A stretch of 64,000 bases of DNA, from NCBI GenBank assembly GCA_963798895.1, contig CAWCUY010000014.1:364875-428874 (forward strand), written 5' to 3'. This stretch comes from an uncultured Trueperaceae bacterium. Lineage in GTDB: Bacteria; Deinococcota; Deinococci; Deinococcales; Trueperaceae. Of the stretch, positions 4,780 through 64,000 are shown piece after piece. A model generated the notes under the pieces. That model saw only the letters and a program-made list of their open reading frames with translations. It was not told the origin of the DNA and did not search any database. A program made the position numbers and the translations under genes. Every line of letters begins with the position of its first letter. Within the stretch, counting starts at the first letter, position 1.

Positions 4780-4860
4780 CCTCGCCGGCACCGTGACGGA
4801 TGTTGGGAAGCTGGGGTCGAGGTCGAGGGGCGACAGGCACGATACGCGGTGGTGCAAGTC

Positions 4861-5130: not shown

Positions 5131-5342
5131 AGATATCAACCTCTCACGTTGCAGTACGTGGTTCCCGCGCGGATCCGGGGGCATAGGCGTCGATACCGCG
5201 CCAGAACTCCAACGTGCCAATCTAGCACGTTCGCCGCCCCTTGTCCAAACGAGGGCCCCGCGGCGCGCCGTCGTCGCGGAGGGTCGCGCGCGGGGCGTGG
5301 CCCGCGAGACGTCGCGCGCGCGGCGCGACGCTATCCTCGCGC

Positions 5343-5759: not shown

Positions 5760-5777
5760 GGCCGGTCGCCGCGGGCC

Positions 5778-7727: not shown

Positions 7728-7759
7728 GCTACCTCCTAAGGTGGCGTCGGCGAAGGCGC

Positions 7760-8494: not shown

Positions 8495-8533
8495 GGCGCG
8501 AGTATACGTGGAGCGGCGGCTCGGGCGCGCCGG

Positions 8534-9448: not shown

Positions 9449-9936
9449 GGCTCGAGCCCCAGCAGCGCCAGCGCGTGCCGCAGTCCCAGCAGGGTCACCC
9501 CGCTCGTCGCCAGCTCGCCGCGCGCCACGCGGCGCCAGGCGTCCTGGACGTCCAGCCATGCCACGCTGAGGTCTTCGTCCTCGTCGGGCTCGCCCTGCGC
9601 CGGCCGGAGGTCGGTCGCCTGGTACAGGTAGACGGCCTCGTCGCTGAACCCGGGCGACGCGTACAACCTCGTGACCGGCGTCATGGGGCCGTCGAGGCCG
9701 ACCTCCTCGGCGAGCTCCCTGTGGGCGGCCTGCTCGGGCGTCTCCCCGGGCTCGATGAGCCCTGCGGGGAGCTCCCAGGTCCGTCCGCCGATGGCGGGGC
9801 GCTCCTGGCGCACCCCCAGGGCCTCGCGGCCGCGGAGCGCGAGCACCGCCACGGCATCGGCGTGCTCGACCACCTCCCAGCGGTCGTCGAGCTTCGACAG
9901 CGTGAGGATCTTGCCGCGGTAGATCTCCTGACGCAT
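9445..9936 (-). CDS. NUDIX hydrolase (ADP-ribose pyrophosphatase-like)
   Basis: Nudix box GX5EX7REUXEEXGU is present (GLIEPGETPEQAAHRELAEEVGL); start set at the internal ATG (MRQEIYRGK). Confidence 0.75.
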   Translation of the reverse strand: MRQEIYRGKILTLSKLDDRWEVVEHADAVAVLALRGREALGVRQERPAIGGRTWELPAGLIEPGETPEQAAHRELAEEVGLDGPMTPVTRLYASPGFSDEAVYLYQATDLRPAQGEPDEDEDLSVAWLDVQDAWRRVARGELATSGVTLLGLRHALALLGLEP

Positions 9937-24737: not shown

Positions 24738-25170
<433 letters not shown>

Positions 25171-49655: not shown

Positions 49656-49936
49656 AGCTGGAGGGTGTGGACGTCGACGCGCGAGCTGCCGGCGCTGGCG
49701 AGGTAGGCGCGGACGGCAACGAGGTCCTCACCGCGCAGCGGGCTTCTGAGGACGTGGTGCAGGTCGCGCTCGGGTGGCGAGCAGCACGGTATCCCAATCC
49801 ACGAGGTGGCGGCTGCCGTCGGCGGAGCTCAGGACGTTGCCGGGGGGGCTCCCCGTGCGTCACCACCCAGTGTGTGTCGTCGAGCGCCAGGGGGCGGGAG
49901 CGAGCGTCGTACGCGCGGAGGCGTCGCTCGAGGGCC
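49651..49936 (-). pseudogene. Direct-repeat copy 1: frameshifted fragment of the phosphotransferase (APH-family) gene
   Basis: 286 bp with about 95% identity to 58668-58957; it encodes ...RRLRAYDARSRPLALDDTHWVVTHGEP and then loses frame through two small indels; it is not a full gene. Confidence 0.8.
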
Positions 49937-49963
49937 TGCAACCGCGCGGCTCGCCCGGATCCG

Positions 49964-50797
49964 CTACCGCGGGGCGGCGCGCTCCTTGGCCTGGTGCGCT
50001 GCCGGGCCCGCCATCCGCCGAACGGCATCGATCGCGCTCAGGGCCGCCAGGAACGACGTGCGAGGGTTGTCGGGGTGCGGGTTCGAGAGTACCTCGACGC
50101 GGATCTCGGCCGCCTCGCCCAGAGCCACGATCTGGTGGCGCGTGCGCGTCGCCGACGGGTCCGACACGATGCGCACCGTGGTGCGGTCGGGGCCGACGCC
50201 CGCCAGGCTCAACGCCGCCGCCACGTTGACATTGGCGGGGAAGCCGCGGATCGCCTCGCGCGCCGTGCCCTCGAACACGGTGACGCTGCGGTCGGCGGGC
50301 AGCTCGATCGCGTTGTCCACCAGGTACGGCGCCCCGGCCAGGCCGCGCGGCGCCTTGGTGCTGGTGATCGACGCCTCCCGCAGCCCGCCCGTCGCCGCCA
50401 GCGCGCGCACCCCGTCCAGGCCGGCGATGCCGCCGCTCGGCAGCTCCACGCGGCCGCCCCGCCGCCGGCGCTCCTCGACCGCAGCCAGGAACGCGTCGTC
50501 CAGCAGCGCGCCGATGCTCATCAGGATCACGTCGATGCCCGCGTCGAGCAGCGGCAGCAGGTGGCTCCGCGCCGCCGGCACGCCGGCGGCCTCGAGCACC
50601 CAGTCGGGCTCGAGCTCCAGGATGCGCGACGGGTCGACGGCCGCGCTCCCGACGCGCGCGGCCACCGCCGCGGCGCGCTCCGAGTCCGCGCCGCGTCCGG
50701 CCACGCCCACCACGCGCACGCCCGGAAGGTGCCCGGCCGCCACCTCGGCGGCCACCTCGGCCCCGATGCCTCCGGCTCCCAGGATCGCCAGCTTCAT
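49964..50797 (-). CDS. Aspartate dehydrogenase-like NAD(P)-binding oxidoreductase (NadX/DUF108 family)
   Basis: MKLAILGAGGIG Rossmann N-terminus, 277 aa, AGGAGGAAGG ribosome-binding site. Confidence 0.65.
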   Translation of the reverse strand: MKLAILGAGGIGAEVAAEVAAGHLPGVRVVGVAGRGADSERAAAVAARVGSAAVDPSRILELEPDWVLEAAGVPAARSHLLPLLDAGIDVILMSIGALLDDAFLAAVEERRRRGGRVELPSGGIAGLDGVRALAATGGLREASITSTKAPRGLAGAPYLVDNAIELPADRSVTVFEGTAREAIRGFPANVNVAAALSLAGVGPDRTTVRIVSDPSATRTRHQIVALGEAAEIRVEVLSNPHPDNPRTSFLAALSAIDAVRRMAGPAAHQAKERAAPR

Positions 50798-50819
50798 ACC
50801 TTCCTCCTGACCATGTCGC

Positions 50820-51572
50820 CTACCTCCTGCCGCGCGTCCGTCGCGCCGCGCCCAGCCCGTGACTGATCCGGTCGGCGCATGCCCGCAGCGTCGGCACCAG
50901 GTCCCGCTGCCGCTCGGCCGTGATGAACTGCGTCGCGCCGCTCAGGCTCACCGCCGCGACCACCGCGTCGGCGGCGTCCACCACCGGGGCGGCCAGGCAA
51001 CGGATGCCGATCTCGTTCTCCTCCCGGTCGAAGGCGTACCCCTGCGCGCGAACGTCGTCCAGCTCCGCCAGGATCGCGTCGGGATCGGTGATCGAATAGT
51101 GTGTGCGCGGCTCGAGCCGCAGCAGCCGTCCGCGCGCCTCGCGGGGCGGCAGCGCCGCCAGCAGCACCTTCCCCATGGCGGTCGTCTGCGCCGGGGAGCG
51201 CAGCCCGACGTACGACGCCATCCGCAGGCCCCGCCCCCCGTCGACCTTCTCCAGGTACACCACGTGCGAGCCGTCCAGCTCGCCCAGGTGGACCGTCTCC
51301 GAGGTCTCCTCGGACAGCCGCATCATCGCGTCCCGCGCCACGTGCGGGAGCCTGAGCTCGCGCTTGACGCGCTCCCCCAGGTCCAGCAGCTTGTAGCCCA
51401 GCAGGTAGTCGTGGCCGTCGTGCCGCAGGTAGCCCCCTTCCAGCAGCGACTTCGCCAGCCTGTGCACGGTGCTCTTGGGCATGCTGCTGCGCTCCGCCAG
51501 GTCGTTCAGCGTGCGGGCACCGTCCGCCACCAGCTCCAGGATGGCGAGCGTCTTCTCGCTCGAACGGCTCAT
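50820..51572 (-). CDS. IclR-family transcriptional regulator
   Basis: N-terminal winged helix-turn-helix (TLNDLAERSSMPKSTVHRLAKSL) plus an IclR effector domain; divergent from the plus-strand catabolic operon. Confidence 0.85.
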   Translation of the reverse strand: MSRSSEKTLAILELVADGARTLNDLAERSSMPKSTVHRLAKSLLEGGYLRHDGHDYLLGYKLLDLGERVKRELRLPHVARDAMMRLSEETSETVHLGELDGSHVVYLEKVDGGRGLRMASYVGLRSPAQTTAMGKVLLAALPPREARGRLLRLEPRTHYSITDPDAILAELDDVRAQGYAFDREENEIGIRCLAAPVVDAADAVVAAVSLSGATQFITAERQRDLVPTLRACADRISHGLGAARRTRGRR

Positions 51573-51949
51573 CGTCCTCGCTCCCCGTCGCGTCGGATTC
51601 GCACGCGCGTCCTTCCCCCCCGTGGCCCGGCTCGTTCGCGTCGCTCGTGTCGACCGCGGCGTCGACGCAGGGTCGCCACCACCAACCGTTCCACATCTTG
51701 GAATCGTGTCCCGTATATTGACACGTTTTTCCGGCCGTGGCTATAGTGGCCCTACCGACAACCGATCATCGCATCCACCTGCGCCGGTTCGTGGCGCCCG
51801 TCGGTGCACCGACCCCAAGCCTCGGCACCCCGGCGGACGAACCGCGACCGGACGACGCCACGCGAACCCCAACGATCCCCGCTCCCACGCCCGCCGCGCC
51901 GTACCCCCCGCGCCCCCTGCGCGGACCGCCCCGCCCCCTGGGAGATCCC

Positions 51950-52999
51950 GTGAGCCACGCCACACCGACTCGCCCCCTCACGCGTCCGGACGTCCGCGCC
52001 CTGCTCGCCGCGCAGCCGCGCGTCAGCGTCGCCACCCTGCCCACCCCATTGCACGAGGCCGCGCGCCTGCGCGAGGAGCTCGGCGGCCCGCGCATCTTCC
52101 TCAAGCGCGAGGACATGACCGGCTACGCCTTCGGGGGCAACAAGACGCGCAACCTCGAGTTCCGCCTCGCGCACGCCGTGGCCGAGCGCGCCGACGTGCT
52201 GATCATGGCCCTCGAGATCACCTCGAACTCGGCGCGGCAGACGGTGGCGGCCGCCAACAAGCTGGGCATGCGAACGGTGCTGGTGCTGCGCGGCGAGAGG
52301 CCCGCCACCATCCAGGGCAACCTCCTCGTCAACTACCTGCTGGGCGCCGAGGTGAACTACGCCGCCGACGGTGACGAGCGCGAACGCATCATCGCCGAGG
52401 TCGCCGAGCGCGTACGCGCCTCGGGCCGCAAGCCGATGGTCCTCACCAGCGAGCCCATCTTCGACATCGGCTCGGCGCTCGCCTACCTCGAGTGCTCGGT
52501 CGAGCTGCTCGACCAGCTCGAGGCGCAGGGCGCCAGCCCCGACTTCCTGTACATGACCTCGGGCGGCAAGGGGCAGGCCGGCCTGGTGCTCGCCCAGAAG
52601 CTGCTCGACGCCCCCTACGCCGTCCACGGCGTGACCGTCAGCTACGAGTACGACGTCCCACCGCGCACCGCGCGTATTGCCACCGACGCCGCCCGCCACC
52701 TAGGCCTCGACCTTACGGTCGAGCCCTCCGACGTCGTCAACTTCGCCGACTTCGTCGGTCCCGGCTACGGTATCCCCACCGACGACGCCTACGCCGCCAT
52801 GGAGCTCATGGCGCGGACCGAGGGGGTGATCCTCGACCCGATCTACACCGGCAAGTGCTTCGCCCAGCTCGTCCACCACGTGCGGACGGGCGTCATCGCG
52901 GAGGACGCCACCGTCGTCTTCATCCACACCGGCGGCACGCCCGCCATCTTCTCCCACGCCGAGGCGATCCTCGCGCACCTCGACGCCGCCCGCCCGTAA
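51950..52999 (+). CDS. PLP-dependent ACC deaminase / D-cysteine desulfhydrase family enzyme
   Basis: Fold-type II PLP family (KREDMTGYAFGGNKTRNLEF...); start set at a GTG preceded by GGGAGA, discarding about 70 aa of Pro-rich upstream frame. Confidence 0.78.
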   Translation: MSHATPTRPLTRPDVRALLAAQPRVSVATLPTPLHEAARLREELGGPRIFLKREDMTGYAFGGNKTRNLEFRLAHAVAERADVLIMALEITSNSARQTVAAANKLGMRTVLVLRGERPATIQGNLLVNYLLGAEVNYAADGDERERIIAEVAERVRASGRKPMVLTSEPIFDIGSALAYLECSVELLDQLEAQGASPDFLYMTSGGKGQAGLVLAQKLLDAPYAVHGVTVSYEYDVPPRTARIATDAARHLGLDLTVEPSDVVNFADFVGPGYGIPTDDAYAAMELMARTEGVILDPIYTGKCFAQLVHHVRTGVIAEDATVVFIHTGGTPAIFSHAEAILAHLDAARP

Positions 53000-53025
53000 C
53001 GCCCCCACCCAAGGAGGAGGACCCC

Positions 53026-54639
53026 GTGACACGACCGCTCCACGCCGCCACCACCCTCGCCAGACGCCTGCTGCTCACGCTGCTGCTCATCGCCGGCGCG
53101 GCCACCGCGCTCGCCCAGGACGGAGGCAAGACCCTCACGTTCGCGCAAAGCGTGGCCGTGACCGACCTCGGGCCCGCCTACGGCGCGTTCCTCAACTACC
53201 CGGCAGGGTACGAGGTCGCCTTCGTGCTGTACGACCGCCTGGTCACCTTCGACCCCGAGCTGAACATCGTCCCGCAGCTCGCCACCTCGTGGGAGACCTC
53301 GGAGGACGGCCGCACCTGGACCTTCCACCTGCGTGAGGGCGTGACCTTCCACGACGGCACGCCGTTCAACGCCGACGCCGTCAAGTTCAACGTCGAGCGC
53401 ATGCTCGACCCCGAGCGCAACACCACCAACCGGCCCATCTGGAGCCCCATCTCGGGCGCGAACGTAGTCGACGACCTGACGGTCCAGATCACCACCACCG
53501 AGCCCTACGCCATGCTCCTGAACACCCTGGCGCACGGCTCGGGCGCGATGGTCAGCCCCACCGCGATCGAGAAGAACGGCGACGAGAGCATGACCACCAA
53601 CCCGGTGGGGGCGGGACCCTACATGCTCGAGTCGTTCAACCCCGGCCAGGAGGTCGTGCTCAAGGCCTACGACGGGTACTGGGGCGGCAAGCCGGCGCTC
53701 GACCGGATCGTATTCCAGTACGTGCCCGAGGCCTCGACCCGCGTCTCCGCCCTGCGCTCGGGCAAGGTCGACGTGATCGACTCCGTGTCGCCGCAGCTGG
53801 CGCAGTCGCTCGAGAGCGACCCCAACGTGACCGTCCTGTCCAAGCCCGGGCTGCGTCCCATGGGCTTCGCGATCATGATGAACCACCCGCCGCTGGACGA
53901 TCCGGCCGTGCGCCAGGCGCTCAACTACGCCACCCCGCGGGAGGCCATCGCAGACAAGATCTTCCGCGGCTACGCCCAGAACTCCGATTCCCCGCTGGCC
54001 TTCAACACCTTCGGCCACAAGAGCATCGGCGGCTACGAGTACGACCCCGAGAAGGCCAAGAGCATGCTGGCCGACGCCGGCTGGACCGACAGCAACGGCG
54101 ACGGCGTGCTCGACAAGGACGGCAAGGACCTGAAGCTGACGATGTACACGCCCGAGGGGCTGTTCCCCGCCGATGTCGACATCGCCGAGGTGACGGCCAA
54201 GTCGCTGCAGGACATCGGCATCGGCGTCGACATCGTCAAGATCGAGAAGGGCGGCTACTGGGACACGCTGCGCCTGCCGCGTGACGAGCTGAAGTGGGAC
54301 ATCGCCATGTTCGGCTTCAACCCGTCGAACGCTGGCGGCACCTACCACATGGACTCGCTCTTCAGCGCCAACCCCGACCCGGCCGCGACGCCGGTGGCGT
54401 GGAACATCACCCGCTACGACAACGCCGAGGTGACCGACCTCATCGACCAGGCCAAGGTCACGATCGACCCGACGAAGCGCGCCGACCTGCTGGGCCGCGC
54501 GCAGGAGATGGTGTGGAACGACGCGCCCTACATCTGGCTGCAGGTGAACGAGGTCGTCTCGGCCACGCGCAGCGACGTGTCGGGCGTCGAGGTGTGGCCC
54601 ATCATCTTCACGGTCGTGCGCAACGCCACCAAGCCGTAA
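53026..54639 (+). CDS. ABC transporter substrate-binding protein, family 5 (peptide/opine/nickel type)
   Basis: GTG start preceded by AAGGAGGAGG; signal peptide; SBP_bac_5 fold. Confidence 0.85.
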   Translation: MTRPLHAATTLARRLLLTLLLIAGAATALAQDGGKTLTFAQSVAVTDLGPAYGAFLNYPAGYEVAFVLYDRLVTFDPELNIVPQLATSWETSEDGRTWTFHLREGVTFHDGTPFNADAVKFNVERMLDPERNTTNRPIWSPISGANVVDDLTVQITTTEPYAMLLNTLAHGSGAMVSPTAIEKNGDESMTTNPVGAGPYMLESFNPGQEVVLKAYDGYWGGKPALDRIVFQYVPEASTRVSALRSGKVDVIDSVSPQLAQSLESDPNVTVLSKPGLRPMGFAIMMNHPPLDDPAVRQALNYATPREAIADKIFRGYAQNSDSPLAFNTFGHKSIGGYEYDPEKAKSMLADAGWTDSNGDGVLDKDGKDLKLTMYTPEGLFPADVDIAEVTAKSLQDIGIGVDIVKIEKGGYWDTLRLPRDELKWDIAMFGFNPSNAGGTYHMDSLFSANPDPAATPVAWNITRYDNAEVTDLIDQAKVTIDPTKRADLLGRAQEMVWNDAPYIWLQVNEVVSATRSDVSGVEVWPIIFTVVRNATKP

Positions 54640-54651
54640 CCTCTCGCCTTC

Positions 54652-54690
54652 ATGCTCCGGGCTCCCGCGCCACGCGGGAGCCCGGAGCAT
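54652..54690. promoter_or_regulatory. Perfect 18-bp-stem hairpin between the SBP and permease genes
   Basis: Sequence ATGCTCCGGGCTCCCGCG-CCA-CGCGGGAGCCCGGAGCAT. Confidence 0.6.
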
Positions 54691-54702
54691 GACGAAGGAC
54701 CC

Positions 54703-55623
54703 ATGCTGACCTACGCGCTCTGGCGCCTCGCCAGGATCCTCCCCGTGGCCCTCATCGTGGTCACGCTCATCTTCTTCCTGTTCCGCATGGTCCCCGGCGA
54801 TCCGGCGCGCGCCATCGCCGGGCCGCAGGCGTACGAGGACGCCATCGAGCAGATCCGCCACGAGCTCGGCCTGGACCGACCGCTGCTCGTGCAGTACGGC
54901 GAATACATCGCCGGTATCTTCCGCGGCGACCTCGGCTACTCCGGCATCTACCGCGGCAACACCGCCCCCGTCATCCTCCAGCACCTCCCGCCCACCCTGG
55001 CGCTGCTCGGCGCCGCCATGCTCCTCACCGTGCTGGTGGGGATCCCGTCTGGCGTGCTGGCGGCGGTCTTCCGCAACGGCCCCATCGACTACGCGATCAG
55101 CTTCTTCGTCGTGAGCATGCTCTCCGTCCCCAACTTCTGGCTCGGGATGATGCTCATCACGCTGTTCTCGGTCACGTACCGGGTGCTGCCGTCGTACGGT
55201 TTCGACAGCTGGACCGCCCTGGTGCTTCCCACCGTCGCGGTAAGCGCGAGGCTGGTCGCGGTGATCACGCGCATGATGCGTTCGAGCATGCTCGAGGTGC
55301 TGGGCCTCGACTACGTCCGCACCGCCCGCGCGAAGGGGCTGGCCGGGGGCGGCGTGGTCCTGAAGCACGCCATGCGCAACGCGCTCGTGCCCACCATCAC
55401 CACGCTGGGCTTGCAGGCGGGCTACCTGCTGGGCGGCTCCATCGTCATCGAGCGGCTGTTCGCCTGGCCCGGCGTCGGGCAGCTCATGATCAACTCGGTG
55501 GGCCTGCGCGACTTCAACATGGTGCAGGGCATCACCATCGTGTTCTCCGTCGGCTTCCTGCTCATCAACCTGCTCGTCGACCTCATCTACGCGTGGGCGA
55601 ACCCGCGCATCCAGTACGCATGA
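54703..55623 (+). CDS. ABC transporter permease (DppB/OppB-like)
   Basis: 6-TM BPD_transp_1 domain; GAAGGA ribosome-binding site. Confidence 0.85.
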   Translation: MLTYALWRLARILPVALIVVTLIFFLFRMVPGDPARAIAGPQAYEDAIEQIRHELGLDRPLLVQYGEYIAGIFRGDLGYSGIYRGNTAPVILQHLPPTLALLGAAMLLTVLVGIPSGVLAAVFRNGPIDYAISFFVVSMLSVPNFWLGMMLITLFSVTYRVLPSYGFDSWTALVLPTVAVSARLVAVITRMMRSSMLEVLGLDYVRTARAKGLAGGGVVLKHAMRNALVPTITTLGLQAGYLLGGSIVIERLFAWPGVGQLMINSVGLRDFNMVQGITIVFSVGFLLINLLVDLIYAWANPRIQYA

Positions 55624-56582
55624 CGCCCGACCCGAGCTTGCCCGGCGGCGGCTCCGCCGACCCCGCCGGGCCGGCCGGGGACGGTTCCGTGAACGCGGTC
55701 CCCCACGGCGCGGCGGCCGCCACCGTAGCGCCCGCCATCCGCGGCCCGCGGCCCCGCTGGCGACGCACGCTGCGACGCGCGCTGCGCAACCCCAACCTGA
55801 TGTTCGGGGCGGCGGTGCTGCTGCTCTACCTGGTGCTTGCGTTGCTCGGTCCCGCCCTCGCGCCCTACGGCGTCGACGACCAGGACCTGTTCAGCTCGCT
55901 CATCGGCCCCACCCGGGAGCACCTGCTGGGCACCGACTCGATCGGCCGCGACCTGCTCAGCCGCGTCATCGTGGGCACGCGCTACTCGCTCTCGATCGCG
56001 GTGCTGTCGGTGCTGTTCGGTTCGCTGCTGGGGATCCCGGTGGGGCTGCTGGCCGGCTTCTTCGGCGGCCGCACCGACTCGCTGCTGATGGGCTTCATCG
56101 ACATCCTCCTCACCATCCCGGTCATCGTGCTGGCCATCGCCATCGTCACGGTGATGGGACCCGGCATGGTCGGCCTCGTCACCGCCATCGCCATCAGCTT
56201 CGCGCCGCGCCTGGCGCGCCTGACACGCGGCAGGGTGTTCGAGGTGAAGGAGGAGGTGTTCGTCAGCGCCGCCACCGCCCTGGGCGGCAGCGTGATACGC
56301 ATCCTTGGCCGGCACGTGCTGCCGAACGCGTTCGCGCCGCTCATCATCGAGATCACCCTGCGCGCCGGCCAGGCGGTGCTGGTGGGCGCGGCCCTGGGCT
56401 TCCTCGGGCTGGGCGTGCAGCCCCCCACCCCCGAGTGGGGCACCATGCTCAGCCGCGGTCGCGAGTACCTCGAGATCGCGCCGCACGTGGTGGTGGCCCC
56501 CGGGCTCGCCATCTCGCTGCTGGTGCTCGGATTCAACCTGTTCGGCGACGGCCTGCGCGACGCGTGGGACCCGAGCCGCTGA
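55620..56582 (+). CDS. ABC transporter permease (DppC/OppC-like)
   Basis: ATG overlaps the upstream stop (ATGA); N-terminal extension followed by the permease core. Confidence 0.85.
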   Translation: MTPDPSLPGGGSADPAGPAGDGSVNAVPHGAAAATVAPAIRGPRPRWRRTLRRALRNPNLMFGAAVLLLYLVLALLGPALAPYGVDDQDLFSSLIGPTREHLLGTDSIGRDLLSRVIVGTRYSLSIAVLSVLFGSLLGIPVGLLAGFFGGRTDSLLMGFIDILLTIPVIVLAIAIVTVMGPGMVGLVTAIAISFAPRLARLTRGRVFEVKEEVFVSAATALGGSVIRILGRHVLPNAFAPLIIEITLRAGQAVLVGAALGFLGLGVQPPTPEWGTMLSRGREYLEIAPHVVVAPGLAISLLVLGFNLFGDGLRDAWDPSR

Positions 56583-56618
56583 CGCGCCCGGACGTCCCGG
56601 GGCCTGGAGGGCCACCCC

Positions 56619-57767
56619 ATGATCCACGTCTCCCGCTTCGAGCGCCCCTTCCGCGTGATCGACGCCCACGCGCACGTGCTGCCCTACTTCGGCAGCGCCG
56701 CCGGCTTCGCCTCGCCGGAGGAGCACCACCTCTACATGCAGCGCGCGATGCACACGCACGGCTCGCAACCGGTGCGGCGCGCGCGCGACCACGCGGTGGT
56801 GCGCGAGCCGACGCTGTGGGACCCCGACGACCCCACGCCGGGGGGCCGCTACGACGTCGACTTCCGGGTGGGCCGCAACGGCCGCTTCGAGTGGACGAAG
56901 GACGGCGAGGACTACTACCTGCAGTTCATGCCCGTCACGCTGCAGACGATGGAGGCGCCCGTCCAGTTCCATGTCGACCAGATGGACGCCGTCGGGGTGG
57001 ACGCGTCGGTGCTGCAGAACGACCACATCTACGGCAGCCTCAACGCGTTCTTCGCCGACGCCGTGGCGCAGCACCCGCAGCGCTTCCTCGGCTGCATCCA
57101 GGTGGAGGAGGCGCGCGCCTTCGAAGACGCGCAGATCGCGCGGCTGCGGCGCGGGGTGGAGGAGCAGGGCCTGCGCGGCCTGTACTTCACCACCAGCACG
57201 TTCTTCACGACCGGCTACCGGCCGTACTACGACGAGGCGGTCTTCGAGCCGTTCTGGCGCGAGGTCGAGGCGCTCGACCTGCCGGTCTTCTGGGTGTTCC
57301 CCACCTCGGGGCCGATCGGCGATTTCGCGGAGGAGATGCGCCGCTTCCGCGGTTGGTACGAGCGCCATCCCGCGCTGCGCTCCGTGCTCGTCCATGGGGT
57401 GCCCGACCCGCCCTTCCTGGACCCCGAAGGGCGATTGGCGCTGGCGCCGTGGATGGTGGAGCTGTTCGAGGCGTTCCCGCTGTACGCGGAGATCCTCTAC
57501 CCGCTGCGGTGGGGCGGCGTGTGGGACTACCCCTACCCCCAGGCGTTCGACCGGATCCGGATGTACCGCGACATGCTCGGGAGCGAGCGCCTGGTGTGGG
57601 GCTCGGACATGCCCAACGTGGAGCGCTACTGCAGCTATCGCCAGGCCCTCACCTACCTGACGGAGTACTGCGACTTCCTGTCCGAGGAGGAGCTGCGCCG
57701 CATCCTGTCGGAGAACGCGCTGTCGCTCTTCCGCGATCCGTTCCCGCGGGCGGGGGGCGCACCGTGA
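56619..57767 (+). CDS. Amidohydrolase-2 family (TIM-barrel metal-dependent hydrolase/decarboxylase)
   Basis: N-terminal IDAHAHV metal-binding motif; 382 aa. Confidence 0.72.
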   Translation: MIHVSRFERPFRVIDAHAHVLPYFGSAAGFASPEEHHLYMQRAMHTHGSQPVRRARDHAVVREPTLWDPDDPTPGGRYDVDFRVGRNGRFEWTKDGEDYYLQFMPVTLQTMEAPVQFHVDQMDAVGVDASVLQNDHIYGSLNAFFADAVAQHPQRFLGCIQVEEARAFEDAQIARLRRGVEEQGLRGLYFTTSTFFTTGYRPYYDEAVFEPFWREVEALDLPVFWVFPTSGPIGDFAEEMRRFRGWYERHPALRSVLVHGVPDPPFLDPEGRLALAPWMVELFEAFPLYAEILYPLRWGGVWDYPYPQAFDRIRMYRDMLGSERLVWGSDMPNVERYCSYRQALTYLTEYCDFLSEEELRRILSENALSLFRDPFPRAGGAP

Positions 57768-58228
57768 GTGCGCGCGAGCGCCTGGCGTCGATGGGGCTCA
57801 CGCTGCCACAACCCCCGAACCCGGTCGCGACGTACCTGCCCGTGGTCGTGGTCGACGGCCTGGCGTACGTCTCGGGCCAGGGCCCGACGCGCAACGGGGA
57901 GCCCGTGGTGCGCGGCAAGGTGGGGGCCGAGGTGAGCCTGGAGGAGGGCTACGAAGCCGCCAGGCTGTGCGCGCTGAACGCGCTGGCGGCGCTCGAGGAC
58001 GCGCTGGGCTCGCTGGAGCGCATCGAGCGCTTCGTGAAGCTGCTCGGGTTCGTGGCGAGCGCGCCCGGCTTCGGCGAGCAGCCGCGCGTGATCAACGGCG
58101 CGTCGGACCTGCTGGTCGAGATCTTCGGCGAGGCGGGCAGGCACGCGCGCAGCGCCTTGGGCACGAGCCAACTGCCCTTCGACATCCCCGTCGAGATCGA
58201 GCTCCTCGTGAGGGTACGCGGGCGTTGA
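57764..58228 (+). CDS. ridA: RidA/YjgF family reactive enamine/imine deaminase
   Basis: ATYLPVVVVDGLAYVSGQGP and C-terminal RSALGTSQLPFDIPVEIE signatures; GTG overlaps the upstream stop. Confidence 0.85.
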   Translation: MSARERLASMGLTLPQPPNPVATYLPVVVVDGLAYVSGQGPTRNGEPVVRGKVGAEVSLEEGYEAARLCALNALAALEDALGSLERIERFVKLLGFVASAPGFGEQPRVINGASDLLVEIFGEAGRHARSALGTSQLPFDIPVEIELLVRVRGR

Positions 58229-58389
58229 GCGTTCACCGCGGCGTCGGTCGCGTGTGGGTGCCGCTGGGCGCGCTCATCGGCCGCGTCCGCGGTCGGGCGT
58301 TCGCCGTGGCCGGCCGATAGGGAAGACGCGTACCGCCGACGCGCCGGCACGGCTTGCACGAGGTCACGAGAAAGATCCTCGTGAACATC

Positions 58390-58521
58390 CTGCCGTCGAC
58401 CCTGCCGTCGACCCTGCCGTCGAAGCTGGCGTCTATGCCGGCGTTCGCGCTGCCGTCGACGTTGCCGTCGACGCCCGCGTTGACGCCCGCGTTGACGCCC
58501 GAGTTGACGCTGGCGTTGCGG
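58390..58521. repeat. About eleven tandem copies of a 12-bp unit (CTGCCGTCGACC drifting to CCCGCGTTGACG)
   Basis: Direct reading of the sequence; the array lies between the ridA and APH gene ends. Confidence 0.7.
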
Positions 58522-58548
58522 GTGCCGGCGGGGTCTGCGGGCCCGGGG

Positions 58549-59574
58549 CTAGCCCGCGAGTCCGGAGCGGAGGGCGCCGAACGCGGTCCTGACGTCCGGC
58601 GTGCGTTCGTGCGGGGCCCGGATGTGGGTGATGGCGGTGGAAACGTCCGTGAGGGTCCATCGGTCGCGGTAGTGCTGGAGGGTGTGGACGTCGACGCGCG
58701 AGCTGCCGGCGCTGGCGAGGTAGGCGCGGACGGCAACGAGGTCCTCGCCGCGCAGTGGGCTTCTGAGGATGTGGTGCAGGTCGCGCTCGGGTGGGGCGAG
58801 TAGCACGGTATCCCAATCCACGAGGTGGCGGTTGCCGTCGGCGGAGCGCAGGACGTTGCCGGGGTGGGGCTCCCCGTGCGTCACGACCCAGCGTGTGTCG
58901 TCGAGCGCCAGGGGGCGGGAGCGAGCGTCGTACGCGCGGAGGCGTCGCTCGAGGGCCCCGCGGCGAGCGAGCAGCAGCGCGCGCGCCGGTTCCGCGAAGG
59001 GGCCGCTCGGCCAGGGATGGCCGAGGTCCGCCAGCGCCGCCTCGAGCGGCTCCCGCGCTTGGAGCGCGAAGTCCTCGCGCGCAGGGAGCGTCAGGCCGGC
59101 TCCCGCCAGCGCCGCCGTGGCCGCATGGAGCCGGCCGACCAGTTCGGCCAGGAGTCGCCGCTCCGATGCGTCGCGTGGGGCCCCGAAGGTGCCGGCCCTG
59201 CCGTCCACCCACGGCTGCAACGACACGGCGAAGCGCGGCCCGAGTCGACGCACGACGCTTCCGCCTGCGCCGCGCACGGGGGCCGTGACGAACGGCAACG
59301 CCGTCCCAACGGCGGGGTCGCGAAGCGCCACCGCGACGGCGAACGCCCGCTCGAGCGCCGCGAAGGCGCTGTCCGGATCCGGCGCCGCCTGGACCGGCGC
59401 GTCGAGATCGTGGACGGTGACGAAACGGGGCTGGCCGCGCTCGTCGAGGGCCCGCCAGTGGTGGCCCCCGAACCCGACGGGTAGGTAGTGCAGGTCGTGC
59501 ACCGCCAGGCCCCAGCCCGCCGCGAGCGCTGCGGCGAGGTCGGCGGGCGAGAGCTCCGGTGGCGGCGTGTTCAT
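58549..59574 (-). CDS. Phosphotransferase enzyme family protein (APH / aminoglycoside-kinase-like fold)
   Basis: 341 aa; the HGEPHPGNVL...VDWDT catalytic-loop region is typical of the APH/ChoK kinase family. Confidence 0.72.
   Translation of the reverse strand: MNTPPPELSPADLAAALAAGWGLAVHDLHYLPVGFGGHHWRALDERGQPRFVTVHDLDAPVQAAPDPDSAFAALERAFAVAVALRDPAVGTALPFVTAPVRGAGGSVVRRLGPRFAVSLQPWVDGRAGTFGAPRDASERRLLAELVGRLHAATAALAGAGLTLPAREDFALQAREPLEAALADLGHPWPSGPFAEPARALLLARRGALERRLRAYDARSRPLALDDTRWVVTHGEPHPGNVLRSADGNRHLVDWDTVLLAPPERDLHHILRSPLRGEDLVAVRAYLASAGSSRVDVHTLQHYRDRWTLTDVSTAITHIRAPHERTPDVRTAFGALRSGLAG
58668..58957. repeat. Direct-repeat copy 2, the intact copy lying inside the APH coding sequence
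   Basis: About 95% identical to 49651-49936. Confidence 0.85.
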
Positions 59575-59674
59575 GACGTGGTGTTCATGAAAGCGCTCCC
59601 GACGGCGTGTTCATCAGGGCGTGTTCATGACGTGGTTGCTCATGACAGTGCTCACGACGGCGTGCTCATGACGG
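59565..59674 (-). repeat. About seven reiterations of the APH start region (GYGYTCATGA on plus; ATGAACACGCC-like on minus), forming a chain of tiny uORFs
   Basis: Reading the minus strand gives ATGAGCACGCCGTCGTGA, ATGAGCAAC...TGA, ATGAACACGCCGTCG...TGA and ATGAACACCACGTCATGA, and then the real ATGAACACGCCGCCACCG of the APH gene. Confidence 0.55.
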
Positions 59675-60206
59675 CGCGCTCCCACCGTGGATCACGGGTC
59701 GTCCGCGACCTCGCGCCTGGGCCCGTCGGCCCGCCTTGCACCACCGCCGCCGCCCCACGACGGCCTCGGGATCTCGCACGCGAGCCGGCCTTGTGCATGA
59801 GCGCACGAGGAAAAACATTGTGCGCTCGTGCAGAGCGCTCGTGAGCGGCGCCGTCCGCAACCGGGCGAGCGCCGGTCCGGGCCCGGCGCCGGCACAGGTC
59901 GGGCGCCGGCGCGGGCTGGTGGTCGGTGCGGGCCGGGCGCCGGCGCGAGGGGCGGTTCGCGCCTCGAGGCGACGCCGCCATCGGTCGGTCCGGCCCACGC
60001 TGCCGGGCGCGAACCTCGCACGGGCCCGCACGTGCGAGGTTCGCGCGACCGGGCACCCGCCCGCGAGAGGTGCCCGCACGGGGCGGGCCCGGCCCGGCGC
60101 GCTCGCCACGGAGTGCGCTCGCGGCGCCGCCCGGGATCGGAGGGCGCGAGCGGGCATGCGCGGCAATCCATGCCGGATCCCGACGGGCTCTCGAGGGTGA
60201 AAAACC

Positions 60207-60224
60207 TGATAACTCGTCTTATCA
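60207..60224 (+). promoter_or_regulatory. Palindromic operator-like site TGATAA-N6-TTATCA in a locally AT-rich stretch just upstream of the integrase gene
   Basis: Sequence TGATAACTCGTCTTATCA, followed by GATATGCT, lies 22 nt before the ATG. Confidence 0.4.
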
Positions 60225-60245
60225 GAGATATGCTACCGTGCCTTC

Positions 60246-61250
60246 ATGGCCGCCACCGAACGCTTCCGGATCGAACGCTTCCAGGGCGACGCGCTCGCCC
60301 GCGCGGAGTCCTGGGCGACCCTCGCGCCCGACGACCTGAAGCGCCGCGCGGCCCGCGCCGCCAACGCGCGCGACGGCGATGACCTCTGGGCGCTCACCGA
60401 AGCGTACCTCTTCCTGCACGGCTCCAAGGGCGCCCGCGTCAGCAAGCACACGCTGCGCACCTACAAGCGCGGCCTCGAGGACCTGCTCGCCGCGTGGCCG
60501 CACGAGAACCTGTTGAGGCCCGGGCGGGATGCCGGGGTGCTGTACATCCGGCGACTCGAGGCGACGCCGGTGCCCGGGAGCGACGCCCCGCCGCAGGCCG
60601 CCACGCTGCAGGTCAAGCTGGCCGCCGCCCGCACGCTGTACCGGGCGCTGCGCTGGTCCGGCGCCACCGAGGCGCGTCCGTTCGAGAACGTGCGCGTCGC
60701 CAAGGACCCCACGCCGCCGTGGGAGAAACGCCGCCCGTACGGCGAGCGCGAGATCGAGGCGCTGCTCGAGCTGGGCGACGAGGCCGAGCGCGTCATCGCG
60801 CTGCTCGGCGCCCACGCCGGCCTTCGGATCGGCGAGATGGCCGCCCTGGAGTGGTCCGACGTCGACCTGCCGTCTGGGCGCCTGCACGTGCGCGACGGCA
60901 AGGGCGGCAAGAGCGGTTTCGTGCGGATGACGCGCCGCTTGCGCGACGCGTTGCGGGACCTGCGGGCCGCAGGGGCCGCCCCGCACCGTCAGCGCGACGC
61001 GGCGCTGGTGCTCCCATGGGGGGCGGACCACTGCCGCAAACGGTTCCGCGACCTGTGCAGCAGAGCCGGCGTCGACTACGACTCCGCGGGCGTCCACGGC
61101 CTCCGGCACGGCGCGGGCACGCGCTACTACCGTCAGACGCACGACCTCGGCCGCGTCGCAGCGCACCTGCGGCACGCCGACATCCAGACCACGCGCATCT
61201 ACGCAAAGATCGACGAAGCGGCCGTCGGCGAGGACATCGAGGACTGGTAG
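60246..61250 (+). CDS. Tyrosine-type site-specific recombinase / integrase
   Basis: N-terminal SAM-like domain (SKHTLRTYKRGLEDLL); catalytic R (GLRIGEMAALEW), HxxR (HGLRHGAGT) and Y (TTRIYAKI) motifs. Confidence 0.85.
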   Translation: MAATERFRIERFQGDALARAESWATLAPDDLKRRAARAANARDGDDLWALTEAYLFLHGSKGARVSKHTLRTYKRGLEDLLAAWPHENLLRPGRDAGVLYIRRLEATPVPGSDAPPQAATLQVKLAAARTLYRALRWSGATEARPFENVRVAKDPTPPWEKRRPYGEREIEALLELGDEAERVIALLGAHAGLRIGEMAALEWSDVDLPSGRLHVRDGKGGKSGFVRMTRRLRDALRDLRAAGAAPHRQRDAALVLPWGADHCRKRFRDLCSRAGVDYDSAGVHGLRHGAGTRYYRQTHDLGRVAAHLRHADIQTTRIYAKIDEAAVGEDIEDW

Positions 61251-61346
61251 CGGGCCGGCGGCTCCGGGCGCGCCGGTCGCGCCTCCGGCCCCGCGCGCAG
61301 GCGCCTCCGGCCCTGCACGCCCGTCTCGCGCGCCCGGGGCGCCCGG

Positions 61347-61490
61347 CCCTCGCGCCCTGCAAGCCCGTTCCTCGCGCCCTGCAAGCCCGTTCCTCGCGCC
61401 CCGCAAGCCCGTCCCTCGCGCCTTGCGCGCCCGTCCCTGGCGCCCTGTGCGCCGGCCCCTCGGCCGCTGCGCGCCGGCGCCTCGCGCTCT
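61347..61490. repeat. About six degenerating tandem copies of a 22-bp unit (CCTCGCGCCCTGCAAGCCCGTT)
   Basis: Direct reading of the sequence. Confidence 0.65.
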
Positions 61491-61528
61491 TCCCCGCCCC
61501 CGCCGCCGTCGGTGGCGAGCCTCGCGTC

Positions 61529-61596
61529 TCGTCGCGGCGCCCGCGCGCCGTCGTCGCGGCGCCCGCGCGCACGTCGTCGCGGCGCCCGCGCGCGTT
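61529..61596. repeat. Three tandem copies of a 22-bp unit (TCGTCGCGGCGCCCGCGCGCNN)
   Basis: Direct reading of the sequence. Confidence 0.7.
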
Positions 61597-61641: not shown

Positions 61642-63435
61642 ATGCTCGCAGCGCGCCGCCGTCTCTCCCGTCGCCATCTCCGCAGGTACCGCGAGATCGT
61701 GCAGGCGTTCATGCGCCACGGGTTCGGCGCCGTGGTGGGGCGCTTCGGCATCGCCGCGCGCCTGGGCCTGCGCGAGCCGCTGGAGCAGGCGACCGACCAG
61801 CGTGCGGCGGCCGAGCACCTGCGCCTCGCGCTCGAGGAGCTCGGGCCGACCTTCGTGAAGATCGGCCAGCTCCTCTCGACGCGGCCCGACCTGCTGCCCA
61901 AGCCCTTCATCGACCAGCTCCAGCTGCTGCAGGACAGCGCGCCGCCGCTGCCATGGTCGGTCGCGAGATCGGTGTTGGAGACGGAGCTCGGCGAGAGCCT
62001 CGACGAGCTGTTCGCCGAGGTCGAGACGGAGCCGGTGGCGAGCGCGTCGCTCGGTCAGGTCCACCGTGCCTGGCTGCCCGCTCCCGCGCCCGCGGCGGGA
62101 GGCGCGACGCCGCCCGGCGGCGCCGCGGGCGCGCCCGCCGGCTCGGCGGCCGCGCCCTCCGGCGCGGGGGCCGCGCACGCCGGCGGCGCGTCGACCGTCC
62201 GGGGCGACGCGGTCGTCATCAAGATCCAGCGTCCCGGGGTCCCACGCATGGTGCGCGTCGACCTCGACATCGTCTTCGACATCGCCCGCTGGCTGGGCCA
62301 GAGGCCGGACGTGATCGGCTTCCTCGATCCCGTGGCGATCGCCGAGGAGTTCTCCGACGCGCTCACCGGGGAGCTGGACTACGAGCTCGAGGCGCGCAAC
62401 CTGCAGCGCTTCCGCCGCGCCTTCGCCGGCGACGCCGAGATCCACGTCCCGGAGGTGGTGTGGGGCCTCACCACCCCCCGGGTGCTGGTGATGGAGCGCA
62501 TCGAGGGGATCAAGGTCAACGAGGTCGAGCTGCTCGACGCGGCCGGCGCCGACCGCCACGCCGCGGCGATCGCGATCGCGCGCATGTACCTCAAGAGCAT
62601 CTTCGAACACCACGTGTTCCACGCCGACCCTCACCCGGGCAACCTGTGGGTGCTGCCCGGCGATCGGATCGGCATCCTCGACTTCGGGCGCGTCCACGTC
62701 GTGGCGCCGAAGGACGAGGAGCGCCTCACCGACCTCGTGGGCGAGGTCCTCACCGGCGACGCCGAGCGCGCCACCGACCGGCTGCTGGCGCTCGACATCG
62801 CGCCGGGAGGCGTGCACCGCGCGGGCCTCGAGCGCGACATCGGCCGCATCCTCGCGAACTACCTCGACCGCCCCCTCGGTCAGATCCACCTCGCGGATCT
62901 GCTCGACGAGATCCTACGCATCGCGCTGCGCCACCGCCTGCGGCTGCCGTCCTCGTGGGTGGTGCTGCTGCACGCCACGGTCATGCTCGAAGGCGTGCTG
63001 CTCCGGCTCGATCCCGGGCTCAACCTCTTCGCCGTCGCGCGCCCGTACTTCGTGCGCCTGAAGTTGAGGCGCGTCCTGCCGACGCAGTGGGGACCGGGGC
63101 TCGCGCGTAGCGCGCAGGACTGGCTCGCGCTCGCCGAGCGCTTCCCGCGCTACGCCGAGCGCCTGCTGCAGCAGGCCGAGCGGGGCGGCCTCAGCATCGA
63201 GTTCCGTTCCCCCGAGATCGATCGGGCGGCGCGCAGCCTCGATCGCGCCGCCAACCGCGTGGCGATCGGTGTGATGGCGTCGTCGCTCATCATGGCGATC
63301 GCGCTCATCCTCCCGCTGCTCGACTTCACACCGCCATGGTCGATCGCGACCTGGCTCGGCGTGGTCGGCTTCAGCGCGGCGACCGTCCTGGCCGTGTGGT
63401 TGCTCGTGACCATCCTGCGCTCGGGGCGGATCTAG
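61642..63435 (+). CDS. ubiB: UbiB/ABC1-family atypical protein kinase
   Basis: ABC1 motifs (ASLGQVHRA, VIKIQRPGV, HADPHPGN); a Gly/Ala/Pro-rich insertion of about 40 aa; C-terminal TM helices. Confidence 0.85.
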   Translation: MLAARRRLSRRHLRRYREIVQAFMRHGFGAVVGRFGIAARLGLREPLEQATDQRAAAEHLRLALEELGPTFVKIGQLLSTRPDLLPKPFIDQLQLLQDSAPPLPWSVARSVLETELGESLDELFAEVETEPVASASLGQVHRAWLPAPAPAAGGATPPGGAAGAPAGSAAAPSGAGAAHAGGASTVRGDAVVIKIQRPGVPRMVRVDLDIVFDIARWLGQRPDVIGFLDPVAIAEEFSDALTGELDYELEARNLQRFRRAFAGDAEIHVPEVVWGLTTPRVLVMERIEGIKVNEVELLDAAGADRHAAAIAIARMYLKSIFEHHVFHADPHPGNLWVLPGDRIGILDFGRVHVVAPKDEERLTDLVGEVLTGDAERATDRLLALDIAPGGVHRAGLERDIGRILANYLDRPLGQIHLADLLDEILRIALRHRLRLPSSWVVLLHATVMLEGVLLRLDPGLNLFAVARPYFVRLKLRRVLPTQWGPGLARSAQDWLALAERFPRYAERLLQQAERGGLSIEFRSPEIDRAARSLDRAANRVAIGVMASSLIMAIALILPLLDFTPPWSIATWLGVVGFSAATVLAVWLLVTILRSGRI

Positions 63436-63488: not shown

Positions 63489-64000
63489 TCACGGCGCGCG
63501 CGTGCGCCCGTCGATGGCCCGCACCGTGCCGCTGCAGCAGCGCGCGGTGGCGCCGGCGCCGGCCAGCAGCAGGCAGCCGCCGTCGTCGATGCCCCGCGCC
63601 ACGCCCGCATGCGTGACGTCGCCCGCACGAACCTCGACGTGGCGGCCCGCGAGCGCGTCGAGGGCCGCGAACCTGGGCGGTAGCGCCTGGCCGTCGACGA
63701 GCAGGTCCAGGCCGCGCTGCACGCCCGCGAGCACCGCCCCGTGAACGGCCGCGACGTCCCACCCCCGAAGCCCGATGCCGCCCTCGGGCGGGCGGTTCGC
63801 GACGTTCACCCCCACGCCGACGAGGAGGTGCTCACCGACGACCTCCACCAGCACGCCGGCCAGCTTCCGCTCGCGGTACAGCAGGTCGTTCGGCCACTTC
63901 ACGCGCGCGCGCGCGCCGTACTCGCCCAGCACCTCGGCCACGCCGACGGCGACCGCCACGGCGGCGGTGCCGGCGGCGAGCCGGGCGCGGGCCGGGGATC
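63489..64000 (-). CDS. birA: Biotin--[acetyl-CoA-carboxylase] ligase BirA, partial (N-terminus lies beyond the window end)
   Basis: KWPNDLL signature and the C-terminal SH3-like domain are present. Confidence 0.7.
   Translation of the reverse strand, partial: SPARARLAAGTAAVAVAVGVAEVLGEYGARARVKWPNDLLYRERKLAGVLVEVVGEHLLVGVGVNVANRPPEGGIGLRGWDVAAVHGAVLAGVQRGLDLLVDGQALPPRFAALDALAGRHVEVRAGDVTHAGVARGIDDGGCLLLAGAGATARCCSGTVRAIDGRTRAP

Follow-up and report, generated by a model that had tools for sequence, protein, structure and literature searches.

A candidate single-recombinase Xer/dif-type cassette at the probable chromosome terminus of Trueperaceae

Does a tyrosine recombinase gene that lies beside accessory genes and tandem repeats betray the edge of a mobile element, or can it belong to the core of the chromosome that carries it? 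The question is raised by a stretch of 64,000 nucleotides from an uncultured Trueperaceae bacterium (GenBank assembly GCA_963798895.1, contig CAWCUY010000014.1, positions 364,875 to 428,874 of the forward strand), here called the window, in which such a gene (60246-61250, plus strand) is preceded by a palindrome and followed by arrays of short repeats. An initial annotation of the window had regarded the recombinase as the integrase of an island extending over 48.0-61.6 kb and the arrays as att, arm-type or iteron sites. The comparisons described below lead elsewhere: it appears fairly probable that the recombinase and a block of 29-33 bp upstream of its gene form an undescribed single-recombinase Xer/dif-type dimer-resolution cassette of Trueperaceae, placed at the chromosome terminus and with its site lying inside a leaderless promoter.

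The recombinase and the block upstream of its gene

The open reading frame (ORF) annotated as a tyrosine recombinase is intact and encodes a protein of 334 aa with Pfam matches to Phage_integrase (4.6e-21) and to the SAM-like N-terminal domain Phage_int_SAM_1 (1.4e-07). The full tyrosine-recombinase catalytic set R-K-H-R-H/W-Y is present (R194, K219/K222, H284, R287, H310 and Y319) and, in an alignment of 20 homologues, R194, the lysines of the GKGGK hairpin, H284-x-x-R287 and Y319 are invariant, position 310 being occupied by H or Q. Five nucleotide substitutions, all synonymous, separate the gene from its counterpart in L001, a contig of 1.99 Mb from a Trueperaceae/Deinococcales metagenome-assembled genome (MAG) that is 99.8% identical to the window (ENA ERZ25039549:contig_18071). 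More than 100 full-length homologues, with 53-80% identity, came up in a protein search, and all those with a named source are labelled Trueperaceae or Deinococcales; in a genome scan that took one genome per species and gave 56 loci, each MAG has one recombinase locus, with JBOFGY01 as the single exception. Judged by this distribution, the recombinase is a core chromosomal gene of Trueperaceae and not the integrase of an island.

The protein does not fall into any of the curated families with which it was compared. In bits, its NCBIfam scores and the respective cut-offs are 73.4 and 335 for XerC, 73.5 and 220 for XerA, 49.9 and 330 for XerD, 45.4 and 267 for XerS, and 55.9 and 265 for the integron integrase, which places it outside the XerC, XerD, XerS, XerA and IntI sequence families. 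The nearest solved structures, both by sequence and by the fold of an AlphaFold model (pLDDT 83.7), are archaeal XerA, IntI4 and XerH; the best match is XerA (PDB 5hxy; 1.5e-13 and 2.1e-10 for sequence and fold, respectively), and the sequence match to XerH (PDB 5jjv, E = 1.4e-5) covers the C-terminal part alone. A separate N-terminal arm-binding domain of the lambda type was not found in the Pfam search, and the AlphaFold model adds only N-terminal helices. The idea of arm-type sites or iterons is thus without support, because the recombinase shows SAM-like core-binding and catalytic domains only. In a subgroup of homologues with about 55% identity the protein reaches 430-468 aa through an N-terminal fusion with a helix-turn-helix (HTH) of the Sigma70_r4 type, and other homologues have a small separate HTH ORF directly upstream of the recombinase (proteins P0113-P0120 and loci L043-L045, L035, L036 and L048 for the two kinds together).

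The palindrome TGATAA-N6-TTATCA that had been noticed upstream of the gene is perfect over 60207-60224, and with one further base pair on each side it becomes CTGATAA-CTCGTC-TTATCAG (60206-60225). The window has no other copy, 0.05 matches with up to three mismatches being expected there by chance, and the palindrome lies in a conserved block of 33 bp (60197-60229, plus strand) composed of the A-tract extension GTGAAAAAC (60197-60205), the left inner arm CTGATAA (60206-60212), the 6-bp centre CTCGTC (60213-60218) and the right inner arm TTATCAG (60219-60225), followed by AGAT. Written as a core site, it reads AAACCTGATAA-CTCGTC-TTATCAGAGAT, with a dyad of 8/11. Recombinase and block are conserved together in about 35 Trueperaceae genomes. 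Exact or near-exact copies of the block, with the consensus GT(G/A)AAAA(A/G)(C/T)-CTGATAA-CTCGTC-TTATC(A/C)G, occur in 31 genome loci and in about 42 metagenome contigs, and in all of them its orientation relative to the recombinase gene is constant. The asymmetric 6-bp centre is itself kept in orientation, and the variants CTCGTG, CTCATC, CTAGTC and CTCGCC are rare. The conservation of this block across Trueperaceae argues that the palindrome is, as had been supposed, a functional element. The AT-richness of the region was also seen correctly, since the 40 nt from 60197 have the lowest GC content of the window (38%, against a mean of 72.5%), but to call it the only such stretch was an overstatement, because stretches of 42% GC also lie at 51692 and 12537.

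Conservation starts sharply at the left edge of the block, and the intergenic DNA further to the left is unalignable even between close relatives. When this DNA was aligned across eight genomes, nothing conserved was found outside the 29-33 bp, and therefore accessory sequences or a small RNA are not expected there. Two local structures of this DNA, a hairpin with 19-nt arms (95% complementary) at 60007-60046, 160 bp to the left of the site, and a terminator-like stem followed by a T-run at 59822-59838 on the minus strand, are not conserved in sister genomes.

The site is also solitary. With a position weight matrix applied to about 1 Mb of related DNA, the true site of each locus scores 57-70 bits. 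Additional sites, degenerate ones included, were sought in the window with its 7-kb extension (71 kb in total) and in 18 further loci, and nothing reached even 8-10 bits; the site is thus neither an operator of a regulon nor one member of an att pair. For want of an inverted second site, a reading as an invertase or shufflon was dropped, and so was a resemblance to a Fur box, whose half-sites follow a 7-1-7 spacing and not the spacing of 6 seen here. A scan of viral contigs with the 14-nt palindrome was unspecific (more than 120 chance matches), and with the exact 18-mer CTGATAACTCGTCTTATC it gave two matches, as many as expected by chance. One of the occurrences of this 18-mer, at 5772-5789 of a 164-kb giant-virus-like contig (L181) with ankyrin, MYND and LRR genes, lies just upstream of an unrelated tyrosine recombinase, and the same combination is found in five marine metagenome contigs (L184, L193, L195, L238 and L239); although the adjacency to a recombinase is odd, the number of matches is at chance level and the giant-virus match was judged coincidental.

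What kind of site the block may be is suggested by the distant homologues, upstream of which inverted arms of 10-11 bp, a constant 6-bp spacer and the inner xTAA/TTAx are kept, with different arm sequences. In L033 the left arm AATACGATAA and the right arm TTATCAAACT flank the centre GTGGCC (dyad 7/10), in L047 ATTTCCAATAA and TTATTGGAAAT flank GGTACA (11/11), and in L052 ACTTACCATAA and TTATGGTAAGT flank GCTGTG (11/11). A dyad of this size around a 6-bp spacer, with xTAA/TTAx at its inner edges and arms that change in step with the protein, has the anatomy of a tyrosine-recombinase core site. The inner ATAA-N6-TTAT is also common to the dif site of Escherichia coli.

The distance between site and gene is equally constant, with the start codon located 19-21 nt past the palindrome in 32 of 32 loci examined. 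In most of these a TAnnnT hexamer, often preceded by TGn, stands at +7 to +12 from the palindrome and 6-7 nt before the ATG; in the window this is the extended -10 element TGcTACCGT (60231-60239, plus strand), with the ATG 6 nt further on. A simple scan for sigma-70 promoters gave no match, because a -35 element is absent. The dyad spans -39 to -20 of this promoter, and the recombinase mRNA is, on the spacing, predicted to be leaderless. About 60% of the mRNAs of Deinococcus deserti are leaderless (PMC4007540). The leaderless ATG is the start of the recombinase itself in the window and some 20 further genomes; in 11 sister genomes (L002, L005-L011, L015, L016 and L033) it opens a non-conserved upstream ORF, 12-51 codons long, whose end meets or overlaps the start of the recombinase (by GTGA in L002).

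This overlap gives room to a different explanation, namely that the palindrome is merely an operator, serving auto-repression or another regulator of the resident recombinase, whose real substrate or role would be elsewhere and for which the position at the terminus would be incidental. Any protein bound to a dyad at -39 to -20 of a leaderless extended -10 promoter would affect transcription, the asymmetric block has an A-tract where an UP element would lie, and an HTH fusion or a small upstream HTH gene accompanies some of the distant homologues. The design of the dyad speaks for a core site instead: the 10-11-bp arms, the 6-bp spacer and the inner TAA/TTA are those of core sites, the arms co-vary with the recombinase on chromosomes and on plasmids, and the asymmetric centre is conserved in orientation. 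Moreover, the main clade has no conserved regulator gene beside the site, no alternative substrate site is present in any locus scanned, and the module is within about 1 kb of a switch in strand polarity, described below. For these reasons we consider a mere operator unlikely. The two roles are, in any case, not mutually exclusive; a recombinase seated on its site at -39 to -20 would probably repress its own gene.

Position between converging replichores

An unbiased search for oligomers pointing toward the site from both sides yielded the motif GGGG[GA]AG. In the window together with the 7 kb of L001 past its end, the top strand has 19 copies, the last of them at 50,237, and the bottom strand has two in the same stretch; these motifs of the left replichore (1858-50243, plus strand) point toward the site. 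Further to the right no copy is on the top strand and eight are on the bottom strand, three of them inside an insert discussed in the next section and five from 61.5 to 70.4 kb. The difference in strand bias between left and right is significant (Fisher exact p = 1e-5) and independent of the strand of the genes, as exemplified by the top-strand copy at 42,599, which is inside the minus-strand aspS. When 26 loci including the window are pooled, the counts on the two strands are 72:12 to the left and 13:69 to the right, and the best switch point is located between -100 and +1000 bp from the site. About 85% of the copies point toward the site from either side (window and loci L002-L050), and the bias persists in left flanks that are not syntenic (28:3). 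The KOPS (FtsK-orienting polar sequence) of E. coli, GGGNAGGG, is weakly polar in the pooled loci (41:19 to the left and 10:29 to the right) and not polar in the window (9 top, 12 bottom).

GC skew changes in the same region, from positive (1-50 kb) to negative (60 kb onward), and most of the 16 closest loci show this change of sign too. Since G-rich polar motifs and positive skew converge on one point, the local data indicate that the module lies where the replichores converge, at the replication terminus.

Taken together with the anatomy of the site, this position allows a sequence of events to be proposed. Two recombinase monomers would occupy the arms of the dyad, AAACCTGATAA and TTATCAGnnnn. 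On a dimeric chromosome, which has the site twice, the two sites would synapse, and strand exchange across the 6-bp CTCGTC would release two monomeric chromosomes once replication ends. GGGG[GA]AG would point to the cassette from both sides as KOPS point to dif and, since the cassette is at converging replichores with polar motifs directed inward, an FtsK-like translocase could deliver and align the sites at the septum.

Variable flanks and tandem arrays

How, then, did a core gene come to stand among accessory genes? The ancestral order around the module is aspS-hisS-x-HD-mgtE, a variable segment, the site and the recombinase, a second variable segment, and BPL-SMC-MerR-DnaJ-DUF4384. The right anchor is common to about 26 of 35 loci and the left anchor to about 15, about ten loci have unique DNA adjoining the site, and the left flank of the window matches one of about 35 other loci. 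In the window the conserved left anchor aspS-hisS-HD-mgtE ends with mgtE (46258-47658, plus strand) and the right anchor begins with a gene for a BPL_LplA_LipB ligase (63489-63959, minus strand). The sister genomes L007 and L016 have mgtE, a spacer of about 0.7 kb, the site, the recombinase and then directly BPL, and in L011 only the first two genes past mgtE correspond to the window (48.06-49.57 kb). The segment from about 49.6 to 60.2 kb, absent from all three genomes, is thus an addition in the window. Gene calls, Pfam matches and synteny define strain-specific cargo at 49600-59574 between the ancestral left flank and the site; it comprises genes for an aspartate dehydrogenase, an IclR regulator, a pyridoxal-phosphate-dependent enzyme, a peptide ABC transporter, an amidohydrolase, RidA and APH (58549-59574, minus strand). 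To the right of the recombinase, the tandem arrays and ubiB (61642-63435, plus strand), an ABC1 kinase gene recognised by Pfam and NCBIfam, are inserted before the right anchor. The neighbours named in the initial annotation (APH, mgtE and ubiB) are all confirmed by gene calls or profile matches.

The lineage-specific insert at about 49.6-60.2 kb is the part of the proposed 48.0-61.6-kb island that withstands comparison; that the recombinase is its integrase does not. Recombinase and site occupy the same locus between mgtE and BPL in relatives that do not have the insert, and with this the outcome that the initial annotation had named as refuting the island, a chromosomal Xer-like recombinase, has been observed. 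In the window there is no tRNA gene, and neither flanking direct repeats nor copies of the site bound the insert. GC content (z from -1.8 to +1.1) and tetranucleotide usage (z up to 2.0) at 48-60 kb remain within the core range, from which this segment is indistinguishable in composition. At 50-56 kb the GC skew is -0.09 to -0.14, opposite to and several times stronger than the +0.01 to +0.05 of the 50 kb to the left, which lends some weight to an island, as does the existence of an insert between mgtE and the gene. Three GGGGRAG motifs in the wrong orientation are inside the insert as well, at 51168-51612. A recent arrival of this DNA would fit these data, because the skew is reversed and the motifs are misoriented, although GC and tetranucleotide usage are ordinary. 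With a recombinase that shows no separate arm-binding domain in Pfam or in the model, and with arrays that are neither conserved nor stable in copy number (see below), an island integrase acting on att, arm-type or iteron arrays is very improbable, and readings as the integrase of a prophage or of an integrative and conjugative element were rejected on the same grounds, that is, a gene kept in relatives without the island and no tRNA, attL/attR or arm-binding domain.

The tandem arrays themselves are real. Tandem Repeats Finder (TRF) gives 8.1 copies of the 22-bp unit at 61310-61487 and 1.9 copies at 61279-61320, that is, an array of about ten copies at 61279-61487, longer than first described. 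The second array, placed correctly, is at 61529-61593, about 50 bp upstream of ubiB, and consists of 2.9 copies of a unit that is 23 bp long according to TRF and not 22 bp. Both arrays are non-coding, and neither period is divisible by three. The copy number of the 22-bp array is polymorphic, the window having one copy more (61381-61402) than the 99.8%-identical L001, and no 22/23-bp arrays are present downstream of the recombinase in any of the other loci compared. The proposal to look for the units elsewhere was followed within the window, where neither the 22-bp nor the 23-bp unit occurs again. Unconserved, polymorphic and next to a protein without an arm-binding domain, the arrays are treated here as lineage-specific variable-number tandem repeats (VNTRs) without a demonstrated role, and not as iterons or arm sites.

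Repeats are also found to the left of the palindrome, where the unconserved intergenic DNA, unalignable between genomes, includes two arrays that had escaped the initial annotation, at 59563-59690 and at 59869-59947 (17-nt unit). In the former, which overlaps the start of the APH gene (59574, minus strand), the unit GTG(T/C)TCATGAC of 13-14 nt is repeated about eight times; since the unit contains the start codon and its context, the start region of APH is reiterated upstream of the gene, in steps that would not keep a reading frame of three. Tandem repeats are unusually frequent in this genome, where TRF gives 19 rows over 21 kb while sister loci have 0-4, and similar arrays occur elsewhere in the window (at 2307, 15364 and 38102). 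In seven of 25 loci short arrays of unrelated sequence lie within 400 bp to the left of the site, and relaxed constraint on intergenic DNA explains most simply why left-side arrays recur.

The variability of the flanks could also be given an active cause. According to a further explanation, the site would be an integration platform similar to attB or attI, at which the recombinase, or hijackers resembling IMEX (integrative mobile elements exploiting Xer), capture circular DNA and so generate the variable islands; IMEX are known to target dif sites (PMC5357621, PMC9765430). The DNA adjoining the site on the left does vary both between and within species. In metagenomes one identical right flank is joined to at least five different left flanks of lower GC content, and about 14 of 42 metagenome contigs terminate within 150 bp of the site. 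The flanks carry genes of the PIN, DUF4041-T5orf172, Schlafen, type I restriction-modification, TIR and reverse-transcriptase kinds. Against this, neither in the window nor in the 18 further loci scanned is an insert bounded by a second or degenerate site; the insert of the window has no mobility or replication genes by gene calls and Pfam; and variability extends to the right of the gene, where recombination at the site would not account for it. An integron in particular was rejected: with the integron-integrase models the protein stays far below cut-off (56 bits, against 265), and no attC-like or site-like repeats are present in the variable flank. Furthermore, exact 18-mers in viral contigs do not exceed the chance level. 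An integration platform is thus quite unlikely.

In the reading as a dimer-resolution cassette, the recombinase-site module is a fixed point within a terminus-proximal plasticity zone, which in this genome has the metabolic and APH insert to the left and the VNTR arrays and ubiB to the right.

Some observations on these flanks are reported in their own right. In L003 a defence island (1-9860) abuts the site on the left, its genes being of the type I restriction-modification, TIR, reverse-transcriptase, DUF3644, AbiEi and Fic kinds, and left flanks from metagenomes (L211, L224 and L201) have genes for PIN toxins, DUF4041-T5orf172 and Schlafen/AlbA_2. The metagenome contigs L218 and L221, which diverge inside the recombinase gene, look like chimeric assemblies and were set aside. 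Apart from the repeat copy at 61381-61402, the window and L001 differ by a 12-bp indel (51649-51660), a 1-bp indel and about 25 substitutions, so that the two represent different, nearly identical assemblies or strains. Within ubiB, an in-frame 21-bp repeat of about four copies (62102-62190) gives rise to an Ala/Gly/Pro-rich insertion in the ABC1-kinase protein. The RNA component of RNase P, of bacterial class A, is encoded at 24739-25163 on the minus strand (233.6 bits); it is the only result of an Rfam search of the whole window at the gathering threshold, and an E-value search of 59.4-61.8 kb gave none.

Relatives of the cassette and its place among Xer systems

Relatives of the cassette are not confined to chromosomes. 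A tblastn search of PLSDB retrieved full-length homologues, with 40-47% identity, at 83 places in 68 plasmid records (66 from Deinococcus, one from Meiothermus and one from Oceanithermus) of 8-716 kb, mostly at one place per record; the smallest carrier is an 8-kb plasmid with seven annotated genes, and D. radiodurans MP1 is among the records. Nine plasmid loci were read, and in seven of them the gene has its own xTAA-N6-TTAx dyad directly upstream, the other two (L244 and L245) having none. The sites comprise those of pDAETH-1 (left arm CCATAGATAA, centre GGTGTG, right arm TTATCTATGG, dyad 10/10), of the 669-kb QL22 (CCAGAGTTAA, TGTATG, TTATCTATGG), of p17k (CCCCCGCTAA, GTTTTG, TTATCGTGGG), of pDEGR-3 (CCCCGGACAA, GTCTTG, TTATCCGGGG, dyad 9/10) and of MP1 (GCCGTGATAA, TTCAAG, TTATACCGCT). 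The D. radiodurans protein DR_B0104, listed among uncharacterised Xer candidates (PMC9764985), is a homologue of the window recombinase, and the Thermus phages Lalka8, Lalka27a and Lalka27b encode a 'recombinase' with 38% identity to it; in Lalka8 (PQ109075.1, L249) an annotated CRISPR array and a TnpB gene are about 3 kb from this gene. A cassette of recombinase plus site, present once on most replicons, would by analogy have the look of a multimer-resolution system, and large plasmids often carry a recombinase that adjoins its resolution site (PMC5357621).

XerS/difSL and XerH/difH, both single-recombinase systems, have a gene adjacent to its site as their stated hallmark (PMC5357621). The former, from Streptococcus and Lactococcus, resembles the cassette in having a lone tyrosine recombinase gene directly beside its own site in a single module, an asymmetric site with one arm better conserved, and polar motifs unlike the KOPS of E. 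coli (PMC5357621); it differs in its 11-bp centre, against 6 bp here, and in its arms, no specific sequence relationship is apparent (45 bits against the NF003462 cut-off of 267), and the overlap of the site with a leaderless promoter is peculiar to the cassette. XerH/difH of Helicobacter and Campylobacter, likewise a single recombinase with a nearby site, inverted 10-11-bp arms and a short centre, is a good structural match, whereas sequence similarity is weak, XerH is longer (354-362 aa against 334 aa) and the arm sequences are unrelated. Archaeal XerA/dif shares a single recombinase and a dyad site with a 6-bp centre, and XerA is the best match among solved structures, yet the window protein reaches 73.5 bits against the NF040815 cut-off of 220, and archaeal dif is unlinked to xerA in a system reported to be FtsK-independent (PMC5357621). 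XerC/XerD-dif has in common with the cassette the terminus position with converging polar motifs, and departs from it in having two genes instead of one (the scores here are 73 and 50 bits against 335 and 330), in the linkage of gene and site, which is found here, and in its outer arms, which are unrelated.

Two further comparisons concern systems found on plasmids. XerL/dif of Legionellales belongs to a family that is also present on plasmids, as in Coxiella, and attests that clade-specific Xer replacements exist and can be shared with plasmids (PMC9765430); unlike the present case, XerL was shown to work in experiments and was discovered through an integrating element, LME-1, with a dif mimic, and no such element was found here. 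With plasmid and phage cassettes of the Cre/loxP type, and with DR_B0104, the likeness lies in the homologues on Deinococcus plasmids, mostly at one place per record and, in most of the nine loci read, with their own upstream dyad; the copy of the window differs in being chromosomal, in conserved synteny and at a replichore junction.

Several results weigh against a dimer-resolution cassette at the terminus. The recombinase is far under every curated Xer cut-off (73 bits against 220-335), and the MAG JBOFGY01 has five paralogues of it. The 9-nt A-tract extension, present on the left side alone, makes the block asymmetric, and the block overlaps the promoter; part of its conservation could therefore reflect promoter or operator function. 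For the placement at the terminus the data cover about 70 kb of this genome and 10 kb to either side of the site elsewhere, with right flanks that are orthologous and thus non-independent, and the distant chromosomal homologues L044 and L052 show no switch of skew or motif. On MP1, the one complete replicon read, the site is at 124.3 kb and the maximum of cumulative GC skew at about 95-100 kb, and GGGGRAG has no polarity; with regard to plasmids we take the MP1 result to be neutral. Set against these points are the conserved block, the architecture of the site with its co-varying arms, the proximity of the polarity switch and the spread of the family to other replicons, and the dimer-resolution cassette remains, in our judgement, a fairly probable reading.

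Six candidate tyrosine recombinases were counted in a 2022 study of D. radiodurans, which left their roles to later work (PMC9764985), and in a 2026 survey neither a canonical dif nor polarised KOPS could be confidently identified in this species (PMC13342612); our literature search found no later characterisation of such a system in Deinococcota. We tentatively suggest, as a possibility that goes beyond the cassette itself, that it is the missing dif/Xer system of Trueperaceae, with GGGG[GA]AG as the clade's equivalent of KOPS, and that its relatives on megaplasmids and small plasmids of Deinococcus and on Thermus phages, DR_B0104 included, constitute a phylum-wide family in which each replicon has its own resolvase cassette. 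A family of this kind, if it exists, would explain the lack of canonical dif and KOPS in D. radiodurans (PMC13342612).

For annotation, the lesson of this locus is that an 'integrase next to accessory genes' is here a core gene in a plastic terminus region and not evidence of a mobile element. If confirmed, the cassette would provide a terminus landmark for Trueperaceae MAGs and a compact pair of site and recombinase for marker excision in radiation-resistant bacteria that are hard to manipulate. With regard to the resolution of chromosome and megaplasmid dimers in Deinococcota, the locus offers three concrete and testable items for a sister family of Deinococcus, namely a recombinase, a site of 29-33 bp and a polar motif of 7 nt. 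A site inside the recombinase's own leaderless promoter would couple the occupancy of the site to the supply of the enzyme and, if confirmed, the cassette would stand beside XerS, XerH, XerA and XerL as a further lineage-specific single-recombinase Xer system.

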